A DNA stretch of 64,000 nt from Pristiophorus japonicus. Its lineage: Eukaryota. Positions 4,555-57,893 of this stretch are shown here, in pieces; position 1 is the first letter of the stretch; each line of letters opens with the position of its first letter. The DNA is taken from positions 67,580,001-67,644,000 of the forward strand of contig NC_091997.1 of the NCBI RefSeq assembly GCF_044704955.1, given 5' to 3'. The position numbers were made by a program, and so were the translations under genes. The notes below the pieces were generated by a model. The model was not told the origin of the DNA. It did not search any database and saw nothing but the letters and a program-made list of their open reading frames with translations.

Positions 4555-5270
4555 CAGCGCGGGCCACCTACCACCAGGGGCGCTACCCAGTGCCGAGCCT
4601 GCGGCCAACATCTCGCTGTAGGCAACTAGGCCCATACAGCCGTGCCTGGTCTCCAGTCGTCTTGGACCCCCTTGCCACTGGGCCAAGTCCTTGCTCAGCT
4701 GAGCTCGTATGCAACGGCCAACCCACGCTGCAAGAACTCACGCACAGGCATCTTCCACTTCGTTAACGTGAAGTTCGGGACCCTCATGGACAACCCCAAC
4801 AGCGACGGGCCGGAACGCCGCACCATCATAGTTGCTCGGGAACTTAGACACTTTGACATCGACATCACCGCCCTAAGCGAGACCCGGCGGGCAAGGGGAA
4901 GGCCAGCTCAAGGTACAAAGTGGAGGTTACACCACCTTCTGGAAAGGGAAACCAGAGGAAGAACGCCGCCTTCACGGAATCAGCTTCGCCATCAAAAACG
5001 AGCTGGTCTACCACCTCAAAGACTCCCCCCTGCGGGGTTAATGAACGCCTCATGACCCTTCGCCTTGCCCTGTCCCGGAACCAGTGCGCCACAGTCAACG
5101 GTGCATACACCCCAACACTCGATGCAACGGATGAGGCTAAAGAGGGTTTTTATACCAACTCCGAGACATCCCGCGTCCCCACGGGTGACAAATTGATCCT
5201 CCAGGGTCGGCAAAGAGACAGCCCTCTGAGGAGGCGTGATTGGCAGAGAGAGGGTAGGGAAATCCAACTC
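4555..5270 (+). mobile_element. RTE-clade LINE 5' part (UTR plus degraded AP endonuclease)
   Basis: Peptides TLMDNPNSDGPERRTIIVARELRHFDIDITALSETR and GVNERLMTLRLALSRNQCATV..AYTPTLDATDEAKEGFY, with frameshifts. Confidence 0.85.
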
Positions 5271-5814
5271 CCACCGGAGATATCTTTCAAGTGTCTGTAT
5301 CGCCCCCCCAGCCCGCTGCGTATCTGTTACCCAGCCACCCCCCTCCTGTCCTCCTCCTCTCCAAGGGGAGATTAAGAGTGGCAGCGGTCTGTTGGATCAG
5401 GGAGGCCACCACAACCAAGCCCAGTTCCTCTCTGTTTGCCAGCGTTCCACTTTGACTTTCCAGGAGGGACCTGGGCTGATTTCCTTTCCTCCTCCTGGCC
5501 GAGGGACTGAGGCACCAATCGCCACCCATGCTCCAGACTAAATCTTCAGCTCGATTACATCACTTTTCCTTTGCCGGAGTGTCTGCTGTACTGGCTGGGT
5601 GCGATACATGCATCCACAGTCCTGCATAGAGGTCCAGGTCTGAAGATTCGTCTCACAGAGATCTTGCTCGAGGAACCTCTTTTGGGGAGGGCGGGCAGAG
5701 GGGGGAATGGAATATACCAAAGCCAGCCTTGGATTGCATGCAAAGTATGTGATAGCTTAGCTCCGTACTATTGTCTATGGACTGTGGTTTCCAGCCCCAC
5801 TCCTGGACTTGAGC

Positions 5815-6528: not shown

Positions 6529-6949
6529 TTTTCCAGTGCAGGACTGAGGGGGTGCTGCATTGTCACCAGGGGATGTGTAGCCAAGCCCAAGCCCCTCATT
6601 TACCTTGCAGTTGTGGTCACTGGATAATAAAAACCGCAGCATCATCGAACCATTTGATTTGCCAAACCTGCTGGTGGCCAACCCCTTGGGCCTTGGCCCT
6701 TCACCTGGAAGTTGGCTGTATAAACACACAGCCCGTTGCTGCATTGTTGGAACGTGCAAAGTATGGCACAGATATTGCAAGTTTAAGCAAGTTTCTGGTC
6801 GAAACAAAAATGTTGCCAGCCTTGGTAGTGGACTTTACCTATTCCTCTGGCCGTGTCTGACCTTAAATACACAGCTGTAATCTCGCATTAAGCAGCGCAA
6901 CAGTAGTATGTAAAATAGCCACAGGTGCCCTTTCTCCTCTCGCTCTGTG

Positions 6950-8132
6950 AAGAAAGACTTGCATTTATATAACGCCTTTCACAACCACCGGGCGTCCCCA
7001 AAGCGCTTTACAGTCAAAGTAGTACTTCTTGAAGTGTTGTCATTGTTGGAATCACACAACGGTCACAGCACAGCAGGCCATTCGGCCCATCGAGCCCGTG
7101 CCGGCTCTCTGCAAGAGCACCTCAGCCAGTCCCACTCTCCCGCCCCTTCCCCGTAGCCCGGCAAATTACTTTCCTTCAGGAACTTATCCAACTCCCTTTT
7201 GAAAGCCACGATTGATATTCCTCCACCACCCTCTCGGGCAGATCCTAACCCCTCGCTGCGTAAAAACGTTTTGTCTTGCGTCGCCTTTGGTTCTTCTGCC
7301 CATTGCCTTAAATCTGTGCCCCCTGGTTCTCCCCCCGTCCGCCAATATCCAGACCACCTCATGATTTTGAAATGTAGTGCAGGAAACTCAGCAGCCAACC
7401 TGCGCACAGCAAGCTCCCATAAACAGCACTGTGATAATGGCCAGATAATCTGTTTTAGTGATGTCGATTTGAGGAATAAATATTGGCCCCAGGTCACCGG
7501 GGAGAACTCCCCTGCTCTTCTTCGCAATAGTGCTGTGGGATCTTTTGCATCCACCTGACAGAGCAGATGGGGCCTCGGTTTAACGTCTCATCTGAAAGAC
7601 GGCACCTCCGACAGTGCGGCGCTCCCTCAGTACTGCCCCTCCGACAGTGCGGCTCTCCCTCGGCGCTGCCCCTCCGACAGTGCGGCGCTCCCTCGGCGCT
7701 GCCCCTCCGACAGTGCGGCGCTCCCTCGGCGCTGCCCCTCCGACAGTGCGGCGCTCCCTCGGCACTGCCCCTCCGACAGTGCGGCGCTCCCTCGGCGCTG
7801 CCCCTCCGACAGTGCGGCGCTCCCTCGGCGCTGCCCCTCCGACAGTGCGGCGCTCCCTCGGCGCTGCCCCTCCGACAGTGCGGCGCTCCCTCGGCGCTGC
7901 CCCTCCGACAGTGCGGCGCTCCCTCGGCACTGCCCCTCCGACAGTGCGGCGCTCCCTCGGCACTGCCCCTCCGACAGTGCGGCGCTCCCTCGGCACTGCC
8001 CCTCCGACAGTGCGGCGCTCCCTCGGCACTGCACTGGGAGTGTCAGCCTAGATTTTTGTGCTCAAGTCTCTGGAGTGGGACTTGAGCCCACGACCTTCTG
8101 ACTCAGCGAGGAGAGTGCTGCCCACTGAGCCA
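6950..8132 (-). mobile_element. DeuSINE-like element with 13 x 33-bp units, interrupted by a CR1 3' fragment (about 7049-7370)
   Basis: SINE tail 6950-7048, body resumes about 7371; array 7605-8035; head near 8130. Confidence 0.85.
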
Positions 8133-18448: not shown

Positions 18449-19063
18449 GTGGCAGGTGCGGATGTTCCCTGTAACTTTCTTTTACCCTTTAACTGGCTGC
18501 CCGGCCCATTCAGCGAGTTCCACATTCTCAGCACTCTCTGGGTAAAGAAGTTTCTCCTGAATTCCCCCGTTGGGTTTATTAGTGACTGTCTGATATTGAT
18601 GGCCCCTAGTTTCGGTCTTCCCCACAAGTGGAAATATTCTGTAAACCACTCTTATCAAAACCTTTCATAATTTTAAAGAGCTCTCATTAGGTCACCCCTG
18701 AGCTAAAGAGACCCAGGCTGTTGCCTTTTCTATATCGGGTCTCGGTTCCCTTCGACCCCGGTGCCTGTCACCCCTAGGGAGGGGGCTCGAGTCCATGGGG
18801 GCCGGGCCCCAACAAGGAGCGACAGGGATGTGTGTGAGATGGGCCGGGAGGAAAATCGAGCTGGTGCTGGGAGGAGCAAGTGTGATAAAGCAGTGATTGA
18901 TTTAAATGTTCAGATTAACAAGCATCTGAACCGGGTTCAACCGCAACTGAAACAGTGCTTGAAGAAAGACTTGCGTTTATATAGTGCCTTACACGACCAC
19001 CGGACGTCCCAAAGCGCTTTTACATCAATTGGAGTACTTTTGGAGTGTAGTCACTGTTGTAAT

Positions 19064-19380
19064 AGAAACATAGAAAATAAGCGCAGGAGTAGGCCATTCG
19101 GCCCTTCGAGCCTGCACCGTCATTCAATATGATCATGGCTGATCATTCACCTCAGTACCTCTTTCCTGATTTCTCTCCATACCCCTTGATCCCTTTAGCC
19201 GTAAGGGCCATATCTAACTCCCTCTTGAATATATCCAATGAACTGGCCTCAACAACTCTCTGCGGCAGGGAATTCCACAGGTTATCAACTCTCTGAGTGA
19301 AGAAGTTTCTCCTCATCTTGGTCCTAAATGGCTTACCCCTTATCCCCTGTGTGACCCTGGTTCTGGACTTCCCCAACATC
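19064..19380 (-). mobile_element. CR1 3' end with terminal microsatellite tail
   Basis: FFTQRVDNLWNSLPQRVVEASSLDIFKRELD on -; tail (tttctatg)-like. Confidence 0.88.
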
Positions 19381-19823
19381 GGAGTGGGTGTGAGTGAGTG
19401 AGTGAGAGTAGGTGTGATTGAGTGAGTGGGAAAGCGAGTGAGTGAGAGTAGGTGTGATTGAGTGAGTGAGTGGGCGTGGGTGATTGGTTGGGTGAGAGTG
19501 AGTGAGTATAAAAGAGAGGGAGAGAGATGGAGATTAACCGGGGCAGGCGGGGACCCGGGATTGGTGGAGAGGGACGGAGAGCAGAAGGCCGAGATACTGA
19601 GAGACACAAACAGAGGGGCAGGGAGAGAGACGCAGAGTAACCGGGCGATGACGGGGCAGAGAGTTGTGGAACAGGATTAAAAGAGAGAATTGTGGAGAGA
19701 GAGATGCAGAAACTGAGCGTTGGAGATGTCGGGACAGACAAAGACCGAGAGACAGTGAGGCCGATGTGGAGGAAGAGCTGGAGGGGCCGAGAGATGAAGA
19801 AAGATGATGATACAGAGATGAAG

Positions 19824-20114
19824 ATGGCGGCGGTGTGGGCTCGGATTTCCCGCAGGAGTTTCAGTAGCTGTCGGCTGTGGCTGGTACGGAGGAGCACCGA
19901 GCGGCACGCACTGGGAAAATCCTGACCTTTGTTGTTGCTGTTCCTGGCGTAAGTGTCTGTATGTCACACCCAGGAGCAGGCAGAGTTTGTTCCTTATGAG
20001 CTCCTTCGTATCAGGAGCAAACCATTCCCTTGGGGTGATGGGAAGCGCAGTCTCTTCCACGATCCCCGTACTAATCCTCTGCCCACGGGCTACGAAGGTG
20101 TGGAGGAAGACTGA
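19824..20114 (+). pseudogene. COX6A1: Processed pseudogene of cytochrome c oxidase subunit 6A
   Basis: ATG at 19824 gives MAAVWARISRRSF; after a frameshift, [32 protein letters not shown]; after a second frameshift/deletion near 19970, [47 protein letters not shown] (stop 20112-20114). This matches the COX6A motifs [11 protein letters not shown] and [12 protein letters not shown]. No introns. AATAAA at 20242-20247. COX6A1 versus COX6A2 is uncertain. Confidence 0.92.
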
Positions 20115-21814
20115 AATGCTGGAGGAGAGAAGACTGGCTCTGAGTTGATGGACCAGTTATGTAAATGTGGTGTGTATTATTTCAAAAACAAAGGTAGAAG
20201 AATTGTGAAGCAAATGTTCACCTTTAATGAGGGAACACCATAATAAATACACAGGGAGATGCAACAATAACGTTGCAGGAAGGGATGGAAGGGATTAAGG
20301 TGTAGAGAGAGATTTAGAGAGAGAGAAATGTGGAGACAGAGACAGACAATATAAAGAAACGTGGAGATTTCAAGACAGATTTGCTGTTGTAATGTGGGAA
20401 ACGTGGCAGCCAATTTGCGCACAGCAAGCTCCCACACACAGCAATGTGATAATGACCAGATAATCTGTTTTAGTGATGTTGGTTAAGGGATAAATATTGG
20501 CCCAAGGACACCGGGGAGATCTCCCCTGCTCTTCTTCGAAATAGTGGCCAATGGGATCTTTTGCATCCACCTGAGAGAGCAGACAGGGCCTCAGTTTAAC
20601 GTCTCATCCGACAGTGCGGCGCTCCCTCAGCACTGCCCCTCCGACAGTGCGGCGCTCCCTCAGCACTGCCCCTCCGACAGTGCGGCGCTCCCTCAGCACT
20701 GCCCCTCCGACAGTGCGGCGCTCCCTCAGCACTGCCCCTCCGACAGTGCGGCGCTCCCTCAGCACTGCCCCTCCGACAGTGCGGCGCTCCCTCAGCACTG
20801 CCCCTCCGACAGTGCGGCGCTCCCTCAGCACTGCCCCTCCGACAGTGCGGCGCTCCCTCAGCACTGCCCCTCCGACAGTGCGGCGCTCCCTCAGCACTGC
20901 CCCTCCGACAGTGCGGCGCTCCCTCAGCACTGCCCCTCCGACAGTGCGGCGCTCCCTCAGCACTGCCCCTCCGACAGTGCGGCGCTCCCTCAGCACTGCA
21001 CTGGAGTGTCAGCCTGGACTTTATTTGTGTAAAAGTCTGGGAGTGGGACTTGAACCCAGGACTTTCTGACCCCGAGGCGAGGGTGCTGCCCACTGAGCCA
21101 AGACCAGGCCAGACACGGCCAGGGCCAAGCCCAAGTGCCCCCTCCGGCCATCTAGGGGGCGCACCATCCAACCTGGGACCTTCCGAATGTGGCCCATTGT
21201 GGGGGGGAGCCTGGATACTGCCTTTGATGTTTGAATGTTTTTGCTGTGAAGCTAATTAATGGTTGGAGGTAGAGGAGCGTAGTGGGGTGAGGAAGTTTAC
21301 AGTGAAACAGATGTCGTTTGGTTTTCATGTCATTTTCAGGCTGTCTGGGAGGAGGCAGTGAGCACCTTGAAACCCATCCAAGATCAACAAGGTTCCATTA
21401 CCAGGCCACCCATTTCATTAGGTGCCTATTACCCAGTCTGATCCCAAGGCTTGAAATGAAAGAACAAAGACTTTTTTTTCAAAAAAAAATTGTTTTTTAA
21501 GATTATAATGCAGCTTTTAATGAAAGCGAAGGGTAAAGCTGGTATTACACGCTGGGGAGTCGGAGTGAGGCTGTATCACTTGGGGCCTTTCTGAAGCCTG
21601 GCCAACAAGCCAAGGTTAACTCGTACTGCTCGTTCCACCGTGCAGGGAGTTCCCCCCCCACCAGGCCCACAGGCTGCCTTCAGTCGGTGCTTCATCTGAT
21701 CAGCCCGACCCGCGTGCACAGAGTCTGGCCGGGGTTGCGGTGGTGGGGGGCAGCTGTTGCGGTGGCCCTCGCTGCCAAGGCTTTGGGGAGAGATGGAATG
21801 GTTGAGGGTTCCCT

Positions 21815-26559: not shown

Positions 26560-27882
26560 GTGTCCGCCGGGGCTCACTGGGCAGCGCACTCGCCTCGGAG
26601 TCAGGAGGTCGTAGGGTCAAGTCCCACTTCAGCACGTAAAGCCAGGCTGACACTCCCAGTGCAGTGCTGAGGGAGTGCCGCACTGTCGGGGGGACAGTGC
26701 TGAGGGAGTGCCGCACTGTCGGAGGGGCAGTGCTGAGGGAGCGCCGCACTGTCGGAGGGGCAGTGCTGAGGGAGCGCCGCACTGTCGGAGGGGCGGTGCT
26801 GAGGGAGCGCCGCACTGTCGGAGGGGCAGTGCTGAGGGAGCGCCGCACTGTCGGAGGGGCGGTGCTGAGGGAGCGCCGCACTGTCGGAGGGGCGGTGCTG
26901 AGGGAGGGCCGCACTGTCGGAGGGGCAGTGCTGAGGGAGCGCCGCACTGTCGGAGGGGCGGTGCTGAGGGAGCGCCGCACTGTCGGAGGGGCGATGCTGA
27001 GGGAGTGCCGCACTGTCGGAGGGGCAGTGCTGAGGGAGCGCCGCACTGTCGGAGGGGCGGTGCTGAGGGAGTGCCGCACTGTCGGAGGTGCGGTGCTGAG
27101 GGAGCGCCGCACTGTCGGAGGGGCGGTGCTGAGGGAGGGCCGCACTGTCGGAGGGGCAGTGCTGAGGGAGCGCCGCACTGTCGGAGGGGCGGTGCTGAGG
27201 GAGCGCCGCACTGTCGGAGGGGCGGTGCTGAGGGAGCGCCGCACTGTCGGAGGGGCGGTGCTGAGGGAGCGCCGCACTGTAGGAGGGGCAGTACTGAGGG
27301 AGCGCCGCACTGTCGGAGGGTCGGTGCTGAGGGAGCGCCGCACTGTCGGAGGGGCGGTGCTGAGGGAGCGCCGCACTGTCGGAGGGGCGGTGCTGAGGGA
27401 GCGCCGCACTGTCGGAGGGGCAGTGCTGAGGGAGCGCGCACTGTCGGAGGGGCGGTGCTGAGGGAGCGCCGCACTGTCGGAGGGGCGGTGCTGAGGGAGC
27501 GGCGCACTGTCAGAAGGGCAGTACTGAGGGAGTGCCGCATTGTCGGAGGGGCAGTCTTTTGGATGAGATGTTAAACCGAGGCCCTGTCTGCTCTCTTAGG
27601 TGGGCGTAAAAGATCCCATAACCACTATTTTCAAAGAAGAGCAGGGGAGTGCTCCCTGGTGTCCCGGGGCCAATATTTATCCCCAACTAACATCACTAAA
27701 ACAGATTATCTGGTCATTATCGCATTGCTGTTTGTGGGAGCTTGCTGTGCAAAAATTGGCTGCTGCGTTTCCCACATTACAGCAGTGACTGCACTTCAAT
27801 AATACTTCATTGGCTGTAATGCGCTTTGAGATGTCCAGTGGTCGTGAAAGGCGCTATATAAATGCAAGTCAGTCTTTCTTTT
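26560..27882 (+). mobile_element. DeuSINE-like element, about 27 x 33-bp units (largest array)
   Basis: Array about 26660-27555 between an intact head and core/tail. Confidence 0.9.
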
Positions 27883-29800: not shown

Positions 29801-30492
29801 AACATAAGAAATAGGAGCAGGAGTCGGCCATTCGGCCCCTCGAGCCTGCTCCGCCATTCAATAAGATCGCGGCTGATCTGATCATGGGCTCAGCTCCACT
29901 TCCCTGCCCGCTCCCCATAACCCTTCACTCCCTTATCATTCAAAAACTCTCTCCACCTTGAATATATTCAATGACCCAGCCTCCACAGCTCTCTGGGGCA
30001 GAGAATTCCACAGATTTACAACCCTCTGAGAAAAGATTCCTCCTCATCTCAGTCTTAAATGGGCGACCCCCTTATTCTGAGATTATGCCCCTAGTTCTAG
30101 ATTCCCCCACGAGGGGAAACATCCTCTCTGCATCTACCCTGTCGAGCCCCCTCAGAATCTTATACATTTCAATAAGATCACCTCTCATTCCTCTAAACTC
30201 CAATGAGTACCGGCCCAACCTACTCATTTAGAACGGAGATGAGGAGGAATTTCTTCTGAGGGTTGTAAATCTGTGGAATTCTCTGCCCCAGAGAGCTGTG
30301 GAGGCTGGGCCATTGAATATATTTAAGGAGTAGATAGGCAGATTTTTGAGCGATAAGGGAGTCGAGGGTTATGGGGAGCGGGGCGGGGAAGTGGAGCTGA
30401 GGCCAAGATCAGATCAGCCGTGATCTCATTGAATGGCAGGGCAGGCTCGAGGGGCCGAATGGCCGACTCCTGCTCCTATTCCTTATGTTCCT
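29801..30492. mobile_element. Two CR1 3' ends head-to-head (- 29801-30227, + 30226-30492)
   Basis: Both carry the same ORF2 end and tail in opposite orientation. Confidence 0.88.
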
Positions 30493-31099
30493 AAAAGAGG
30501 CTGTGGGATTCCTTCCCTCTCGCCGGTTCCCGTGCAAAGAGTGTCTCCGGCTCACTGCTCTTGGGATGTCTGAGGCGATGTGTCAGTGCTCTGTTCATTG
30601 ACCCGCTGTCGCCATTCTACTCCCATCGCTGTCAGCCATTGTCATTCATCATCCGCTGGAAGAAAGGGTCGATTCATGGCCCGGGAGCTGACGGGACGCC
30701 AGGCCTGTCACAGCTCAGTCTATCTTATTGCTTATTTTGCAGACACACCTCGAGCAAAGGAAAAATAGCTCTGACCACCGGCAGCCGTCTGTGGTCGCTT
30801 GTGATCCCTTGTTTGTCAGGGGCTGACTTTCCTTTCCGCCCCCACACCTGCCTCCCAGTCCCGTCCCAACCTCCGCTCCTCGCATTATCACATTGCTGTG
30901 TGTGGGAGCTTGCTGTGCGCAAACTGGCTGCTGCGTTTCCCACATTGCAACAGCGACTACACTCCAAAAGTACTTCATTGGCTGTAAAGTGCTTTGGGAT
31001 GTCCGGTGGTCATGAAAGGCGCTATAGAAATGCAAGTCTGCCTGTCATTCTTGCCCCCTCTAATATTACGATGTTCACTGTATGTCTGAACTTCCTATC

Positions 31100-49167: not shown

Positions 49168-50030
49168 ATAAATCCAGGCCGACACTCCCAGTGCAGTGCT
49201 GAGGGAGCACCGCGCTGTCGGAGAGGCAGTGCTGAGGGAGTGGCGCACTGTCGGAGAGGCAGTGCTGAGGGAGTGGCGCACTGTCGGAGAGGCAGTGCTG
49301 AGGGAGCGGCGCACTGTCGGAGAGGCAGTGCTGAGGGAGCGGCGCACTGTCGGAGGGGCAGTGCTGAGGGAGCGCCGCACTGTCGGAGGGGCAGTGCTGA
49401 GGGAGCGCCGCACTGTCGGAGGGGCAGTACTGAGGGAGCGCCGCACTGTCGGAGGGGCAGTACTGAGGGAGCGCCGCACTGTCGGAGGGGCAGTGCTGAG
49501 GGAGCGCCGCACTGTCGGTAGGGCAGTGCTGAGGGAGCGCCGCACTGTCGGAGGGGCAGTGCTGAGGGAGCGCCGCACTGTCGGAGGGGCAGTGCTGAGG
49601 GAGCGCCGCACTGTCGGAGGGGCAGTACTGAGGGAGTGCCGCACTGTCGGAGGGGCAGTTCTGAGGGAGCGCCGCACTGTCGGAGGGGCAGTGCTGAGGG
49701 AGCGCCGCACTGTCCAAGGTGCCGTCTTTCAGATAAGATGTTAAACCGAGGCCCTGTCTACTCCCTCAGGTGGATGTAAAAGATCGCATGGCACTATTTC
49801 GAAGAAGAGCAGGGGAGTTCTCCCCGGTGTCCTGGAGCCAATATTTACCCCTCAATCAACATAACATAAAAAAAACAGATTATCTGGTCATTATCACATT
49901 GCTGTGTGTGGGTGCTTGCTGTGCGCAAATTGGCTGCTGCGTTTCCCACATTACAACAGTGACTACACTCCAAAAGTACTTCATTGGCTGTAAAGCACTT
50001 TGGGACGTCCGGTGGTTGTGAAAGGCGCTA
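49168..50030 (+). mobile_element. DeuSINE-like element, 16 units; last bases of the tail displaced to 51027-51038
   Basis: Ends gaaaggcgcta at 50030; ataaatgcaagt resumes after the CR1 insertion. Confidence 0.88.
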
Positions 50031-57436: not shown

Positions 57437-57893
57437 TAACAGGCTCGAGGGGCTGAATGGCCTCCTCCTGTTCCTGTGTAACAGGCTCGAGGGGCTGAAT
57501 GGCCTCCTCCTGTTCCTGTGTAACAGGCTCGAGGGGCTGAATGGGCTCCTCCTGTTCCTGTGTAACAGGCTCGAGGGTCTGAATGGCCTCCTCCTGTTCC
57601 TGTGTAACAGGCTCGAGGGTCTGAATGGGCCTCCTCCTGTTCCTAATGTAACAGGCTCGAGGGGCTGAATGGGCCTCCACCTGTTCTTGTGTAACAGGCT
57701 CGAGGGGCTGAATGGTCTCCTCCTGTTCCTGTGTAACAGGCTCGAGGGGCTGAATGGCCTCCTCCTGTTCCTAATGTAACAGGCTCGAGGGGCTGAATGG
57801 GCCTCCACCTGTTCCCGTGTAACAGGCTCGAGGGGCTGAATAGCCTCCTGTTCCCGTGTAACAGGCTCGAGGGGCTGAATAGCCTCCTGTTCC
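57437..57893 (+). repeat. About 42-bp minisatellite (about 11 units) derived from the CR1 3' terminus
   Basis: Unit taacaggctcgaggggctgaatggcctcctcctgttcctgtg versus the CR1 end caggctcgaggggccgaatggccgactcctgctcct. Confidence 0.88.

Follow-up and report, generated by a model that had tools for sequence, protein, structure and literature searches.

In the portions of the published accounts used here, the closest described counterparts of the locus are LINE template-switch chimeras, in which a truncated LINE with an intact 3′ end is joined to a foreign 5′ part within one short duplication (PMC4476161, PMC2104539). U6 chimeras are described with L2 (platypus and lizard) and RTE LINEs besides U6–L1, and most of 40 platypus U6 cases have duplications of 1–9 bp; the same source holds one unresolved U6–CR1 copy, in turkey (PMC4476161). 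MINE and tripartite chimeras are reported from Magnaporthe (PMC2104539). In zebrafish, 40–50% of ZfL2-2 copies have extra 5′ nucleotides (PMC4245944, PMC2666801), which are ascribed to template jumps (PMC2666801), and a CR1 template switch has been proposed for PittSINE (PMC5729268). Opposite-strand L1 chimeras have been assigned to twin priming (PMC13174262). For cartilaginous fishes, a preprint counts, in the part consulted, 14,081 retrocopies and ties non-mammalian retrocopies, by correlation, to CR1 or Tx1 (10.64898/2026.06.26.734816). Our search of the open-access literature, mostly at the level of titles, returned no shark case of cargo carried by CR1.

The window, by which we mean the whole 64-kb stretch of DNA analysed, contains a 1,320-bp insert enclosed by an exact 10-bp duplication of CTGTTGTAAT (Table 1). 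This 10-mer recurs as a SINE motif, with 15 occurrences in the window on both strands, so the case for a duplication rests on collinearity and not on the word. When 19064–20393 is removed, the split SINE aligns free of gaps over the junction with the 15 other aligned SINE copies. Measured against the window consensus, 7 of 98 sites differ in the tail half and 9 of 211 in the body half (20394–20606), both in the range of other copies. The gapless junction and the family-typical divergence of both halves indicate that they are one SINE copy and that the duplication is real, as the sequence-only reading had proposed; that reading had named halves of different subfamily or age as the result that would speak against it. 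We take the host SINE to be of Deu type and SacSINE1-like. SacSINE1 is tabulated as a tRNA-headed DeuSINE of dogfish in the part of the source consulted (PMC3747384).

Table 1 Features of the insert and its host SINE (positions in the window)
Feature	Position	Strand	Basis or remark
Host SINE, 3′ (tail) half	18962..19063	-	Consensus comparison in window
Target-site duplication, left copy	19054..19063	.	First minus-strand bases AT prolong CR1 tail unit
5′-truncated CR1-like LINE, 319 nt	19064..19382	-	ORF2 end, 3′ stem-loop, TTTCTATG-type tail
Degenerate (GAGT)n/GA stretch	19383..19550	.	Only low-depth contigs at 19484
GA-rich multi-copy repeat, left piece	19551..19821	.	High-depth contigs
Processed COX6A1-type pseudogene	19822..20247	+	Family joint, protein and Pfam matches
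GA-rich multi-copy repeat, right piece	20248..20356	.	340-nt contig, one letter between it and 19821
27 nt with no alignment to family contig; possible filler or indel	20357..20383	.	
Target-site duplication, right copy	20384..20393	.	Exact match to left copy
Host SINE, body and head	20384..21100	-	33-bp array, 11.9 units, at 20607-20999

Reads came from seven runs of one organism, four of which were mapped on 18860–20560 at 80% likeness. X1 and X3 are DNA runs from one sample and hence not independent; X5 and X6 were taken as RNA from their depth pattern, their kind not being recorded. The flank contig and the junction contig have matching depths in X3 (21.7 and 21.2), which fits a homozygous insert. 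Joints that skip 19064 to ~20400 are plentiful, but they come from other SINE copies and are indistinguishable from an empty allele; the unique left-flank contig ends at 19005.

Read on the minus strand, the insert consists, as had been noted from the sequence, of non-CR1 sequence fused to a CR1 3′ end whose tail abuts the duplication. The terminal 319 nt (5′ limit ±~2 nt) are 70–77% identical to the 3′ ends of other CR1-like copies in the window, include a terminal stem-loop (z −2.3) and end in a TTTCTATG-type tail, after which the next letters, AT, are also the first letters of the target, an overlap of 2 nt. We presume this element to be CR1 from its tail and ORF2-end motifs; the ORF2-end part gave no Pfam match, and the RT domain is absent from the fragment. 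Against the read consensus it has at least 8 majority differences. One of the 17 CR1 tails examined in the window, that of the focal insert, has an exact direct repeat of at least 10 nt at offset 0. Another SINE copy is broken at the same base, here 7054, by a CR1 of a different family whose overlap, now decayed, is ~6 nt. The tail abutting its target with a 2-nt overlap, together with this second CR1 at the same base, argues that CR1 chose the target site.

At 6948–7590 of the window a SINE copy with a CR1 of another family, oriented as in the focal insert, suggests a CR1 target hotspot. Two CR1 3′ fragments lie head to head at 29801–30493 with their tails outward and their arms identical at 243 of 265 aligned sites; AAAAGA follows both tails, and the pair could stem from priming of two RNAs at a single break or from the nesting of one insertion in another. 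A 12-nt direct-repeat match at 29801 proved to be another SINE tail and was rejected as a CR1 duplication. At 57437–57888 a 42-bp tandem array of 10.7 units resembles the CR1 3′ stem-loop. The interval 4630–5372 holds broken reading frames, with no matching Pfam family, which we take to resemble the endonuclease region of an RTE-type LINE.

The foreign part of the insert includes a piece of a multi-copy repeat. Contigs over its left piece reach depths of 239–342 in X1 and 981 in X3, where single-copy contigs lie at 7–8 and 13–22. One 340-nt contig, which reaches a depth of 342.5 in X1 (single-copy contigs 7.3–8.4) and 981.3 in X3 (12.6–21.7), aligns to 19666–19821 and 20248–20356, skips the intervening 426 nt and has one letter between the two parts. 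This form, in which 19821 is joined to 20248, thus stands at 41–47 times single-copy depth in X1 and 45–78 times in X3, contig depth giving copy number only roughly. The flanks of the COX6A copy belong to a repeat family of roughly 40–80 near-identical copies, the common form of which is without COX6A. Similarity to the family covers 19551–19821 and 20248–20356; another 72 letters of the family contig fall outside the alignment. Between the window piece and the family form, 24 of 265 sites differ (12 of 156 in 19666–19821 and 12 of 109 in 20248–20356). X5 and X6 have next to zero cover across 19544–19771. Searches bearing on the identity of the repeat were negative: Rfam matched nowhere in the window, three frames yielded nothing past the Pfam cut-off, two frames matched no protein (none of 15 candidates for one, none of 26 for the other), and a single 24-mer had no metagenome match. 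A promoter had been considered on account of CCAAT- and TATA-like words at 19483–19515, and this was dropped because G replaces the T at 19484 in the greater part of the read depth. A single-copy relative of the repeat at 19582–19745 (X3 record 9; 15 mismatches in 164 nt, 123 letters unaligned) is read as another dispersed copy of the family.

Between the two repeat pieces lies a copy of the respiratory-chain gene COX6A with a PF02046 match (E 2.8e-8) on the plus strand, antisense to the CR1, in flanks that are 74–76% purine on that strand; the description of an antisense COX6A in flanks pyrimidine-rich on the minus strand was thus accurate. The copy extends from two letters before an ATG (19824) to the end of an AATAAA, with the stop at 20112–20114, and has deletions of 10 nt (19867/8) and 26 nt (19963/4) and ~17 gap letters in the last exon. 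For protein comparison its two breaks were filled with X. Among 95 protein matches, the top one is a 108-residue Pristiophorus japonicus COX6A (P0001), with which the copy groups (support 0.989; 85% identity) among COX6A1-type shark orthologues. Over 95 aligned codons, 11 of the 14 differences are private to the copy, in addition to the two frameshifts. Judged on these comparisons, it is a dead pseudogene from a sawshark-like lineage.

The copy is intronless and processed. A single-copy contig of 1,769 nt aligns with 20022–20183 only (8 mismatches, 17 gap letters) and carries unlike sequence beyond 20022, where the frame in the window is continuous. Because its alignment stops there, this contig fits the parent's last exon behind an intron, which we assume to lie at 20022 in the parent gene. 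X6 covers bins 19772 to 20227 in an mRNA-like manner and has zero cover in bin 20228–20284, so the mRNA origin of the last 20–45 nt of the COX6A part is putative.

That the repeat flanks are contiguous in a family form lacking COX6A argues that COX6A is a separate insertion. Unlike an L1-type processed pseudogene, which is recognized by a poly(A) and a duplication of its own, the copy has neither, and the family form has one letter in its place. The longest direct repeat flanking it is 6 nt and lies off the junctions; a duplication of ACAGAGATG-like words was rejected because the family joint puts the ends elsewhere. The lack of poly(A) and duplication points to insertion at the DNA level. The sequence-only reading had described the cargo as one layer, with COX6A embedded in non-mRNA flanks: the flanks are indeed foreign, but COX6A is an insertion of its own within the repeat. 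These same features, with one repeat on both sides, recall LTR-mediated retrocopies (PMC5131818), and an LTR-type repeat could have taken up a COX6A mRNA by a double template switch, with a piece of the product carried in later. We regard this as very improbable, because in all the Drosophila cases given in the consulted part of that source the retrocopy replaces part of the element and its flanks are discontinuous (PMC5131818), whereas the COX6A flanks join up in the family form with a single letter between them, and no feature marks the repeat as LTR-derived.

For the insert as a whole, we give about an even chance to a single CR1 event with a template jump onto the repeat and a separate insertion of COX6A in the repeat piece. 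A CR1 would have entered the SINE by target priming, leaving the 10-bp duplication, and would have copied 319 nt of its own 3′ end before probably jumping to a copy, RNA or DNA, of the unrelated GA-rich repeat, after which the 5′ end would have been joined. The template for the foreign 5′ part may have been DNA. COX6A would have been inserted separately into the repeat piece, probably by a DNA-level process of repair type or independent of endonuclease. Its orientation antisense to the CR1 argues against a jump in the same direction onto an mRNA, and a jump out and back to the same repeat base is unlikely, a separate insertion at a break being simpler. We infer the template jump, as well as the DNA-level origin and the timing of the COX6A insertion.

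One duplication encloses both the CR1 and the foreign DNA, which upholds the earlier proposal that a single CR1-primed event brought foreign sequence in. Because the foreign DNA stops exactly at the duplication, the CR1 and the repeat piece most likely arrived together. Were a plain CR1 instead to have come first, and the 1-kb piece to have been patched in at its 5′ junction by a later, unrelated break repair, that repair would have had to stop exactly at the duplication and spare it. The 27 nt at 20357–20383, which lie outside the family alignment, share a 9-mer with the adjacent SINE (3 of 2,000 shuffles) and so suggest repair synthesis, but the 9-mer may be chance, as GTGGAGA-related motifs recur in the repeat flank. 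We find such a later repair scarcely credible.

The junctions of COX6A and of cargo with SINE are not assembly errors, since contigs free of mismatches, with the depth of single copies, run across the left COX6A junction (19660–19948, X1) and the right COX6A and cargo/SINE junctions (20158–20410, X1 and X3). No piece among those listed bridges the CR1/cargo junction at 19382/19383, which leaves room for a donor or family in which repeat and CR1 were already joined. In such a 5′ transduction, transcription would have run on from a repeat copy into an old truncated CR1, and the CR1 tail would have allowed this read-through RNA to be copied; at the extreme, repeat and CR1 tail would together form a non-autonomous family of 40–80 copies. 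This is fully compatible with a stringently recognized 3′ end, and CR1 3′ fragments are dense enough (17 tails examined in 64 kb) for such donors to be common. Against it, no donor contig occurs among those listed, X1 depth at 19715–19771 is accounted for by the family and the window copy with no remainder, and high-depth contigs are absent at 19484, between the family piece and the CR1. We consider 5′ transduction unlikely, but a serious contender.

As the COX6A lies opposite to the CR1, the geometry is also that ascribed to L1 twin priming in the consulted parts of two sources (PMC13174262, PMC4476161). In this scenario, CR1 RNA would have been primed at one nick and a GA-strand repeat transcript bearing COX6A in the sense direction at the other, with the two cDNAs meeting at 19382/19383; this would make COX6A a pseudogene of the second generation. 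The 10-bp duplication lies at the lower edge of the 10–20 bp tied to inversion (PMC4245944), and COX6A (~5%, three deletions) has decayed no less far than the CR1 piece (2.5% or more). By contrast, the accounts consulted report no 5′ inversion for ZfL2-1 (PMC4245944) and only template-switch chimeras for L2 and RTE (PMC4476161), and twin priming requires a COX6A-bearing donor. None was seen among the X1 or X3 contigs listed, a test that may miss single copies; in X1, the depth left over at 19829–19885 corresponds to ~41 nt of a further single-copy contig, an amount that the parent's first exon could supply. Twin priming of two RNAs is, in our estimate, improbable. Distinctly unlikely is the proposition that CR1 twin-primed a second, non-CR1 RNA at the other nick, re-retroposing a pseudogene-bearing transcript from a homogenised repeat array, or that a GA-rich body with a CR1 tail forms a hitherto undescribed non-autonomous family without a tRNA head. 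If either were true, a stringent CR1 would gain a route for kilobase cargo in sharks, for which mammal-type L1 chimeras are the only model we found in the literature consulted.

A near-identical COX6A donor is argued against by window contigs that run unbroken through both COX6A junctions. The test is less sensitive to a diverged donor, given that ~72% of X3 entered it and that some records are lost to a filter. The single-copy relative of the repeat, X3 record 9, does not register in the depth of X1 at those positions, and X1 bin 19772–19828 holds ~8 units of depth that lack an explanation. Breaks in the window contigs imply 46 identical letters (19919–19964) in common with another sequence. 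They include a codon for Ile in P0001 that encodes Val in the COX6A copy, as it does in each of the 10 other orthologues; most simply, the parent gene of this animal has Val, though the other sequence may be a sibling copy. The copy may, as the sequence-only reading suggested, be of second generation, from a pseudogene elsewhere.

Compared with the published systems, in the portions consulted, the insert shares with LINE template-switch chimeras the features named at the outset (PMC4476161, PMC2104539), but unlike in U6 and MINE chimeras its foreign part is a genomic multi-copy repeat, corresponding to no known abundant RNA, with a nested pseudogene. As in ZfL2-2 and CR1-2_DR, extra sequence lies between the truncated LINE and the duplication, with 3′ microhomology (PMC4245944, PMC2666801). 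The extra sequence here is 0.6–1 kb from a distant repeat, whereas theirs is several nucleotides, largely derived from the flank (PMC4245944), a contrast that counts against the template jump. PittSINE resembles it in the proposed switch of CR1 reverse transcriptase to another RNA and in a duplication-flanked product (PMC5729268), but the focal insert lacks a tRNA head and any demonstrated amplification as a chimera. Antisense LINE-1/RNA chimeras likewise hold an mRNA-derived part opposite to the LINE inside one duplication (PMC13174262); in the focal insert, a repeat encloses the mRNA copy, and CR1 takes the place of L1. By analogy, we regard the chimera as a known kind of retrotransposition accident and not as a new mechanism.

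It had been argued that the stringency of CR1 for its own 3′ end made such cargo notable. This was overstated: the insert ends in a genuine CR1 tail, so that stringency is unbroken, and chimeras of the stringent L2 and RTE are published in the part of the source consulted (PMC4476161). The locus is a clean example of a shark CR1 insertion able to carry 0.6–1 kb of unrelated DNA, and a COX6A copy with neither poly(A) nor duplication is a useful data point on how retrocopies arise. As one dead locus, the insert is not likely to have a function; it would carry more weight if this class of chimera were common or the CR1/cargo junction multi-copy.

The events appear to be of similar age. The SINE diverges from its consensus by 5.2% (3.2–8.2), the COX6A copy from the parent's last exon by 4.9% (2.5–9.4), or ~5.3% by private amino-acid changes, and the CR1 by at least 2.5%, a lower bound that leaves 135 differences uncounted; the repeat flank is 9.1% (6.2–13.1) off the family form, which likely kept changing. 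Because these intervals overlap, COX6A is not placed before or after the CR1, and its entry into the repeat piece shortly ahead of the CR1 event seems to us about as likely as an entry soon afterwards. The three deletions of at least 10 nt are all confined to COX6A (rough P 0.03), which hints weakly that COX6A predates the CR1 event or has had a different history.

The host SINE family also has an internal 33-bp minisatellite of 3 to 27 units (for example at 20607–20999, 26664–27552 and 49193–49714). In the split copy, the units of this array show 100% matches, though the SINE itself is ~5% diverged.
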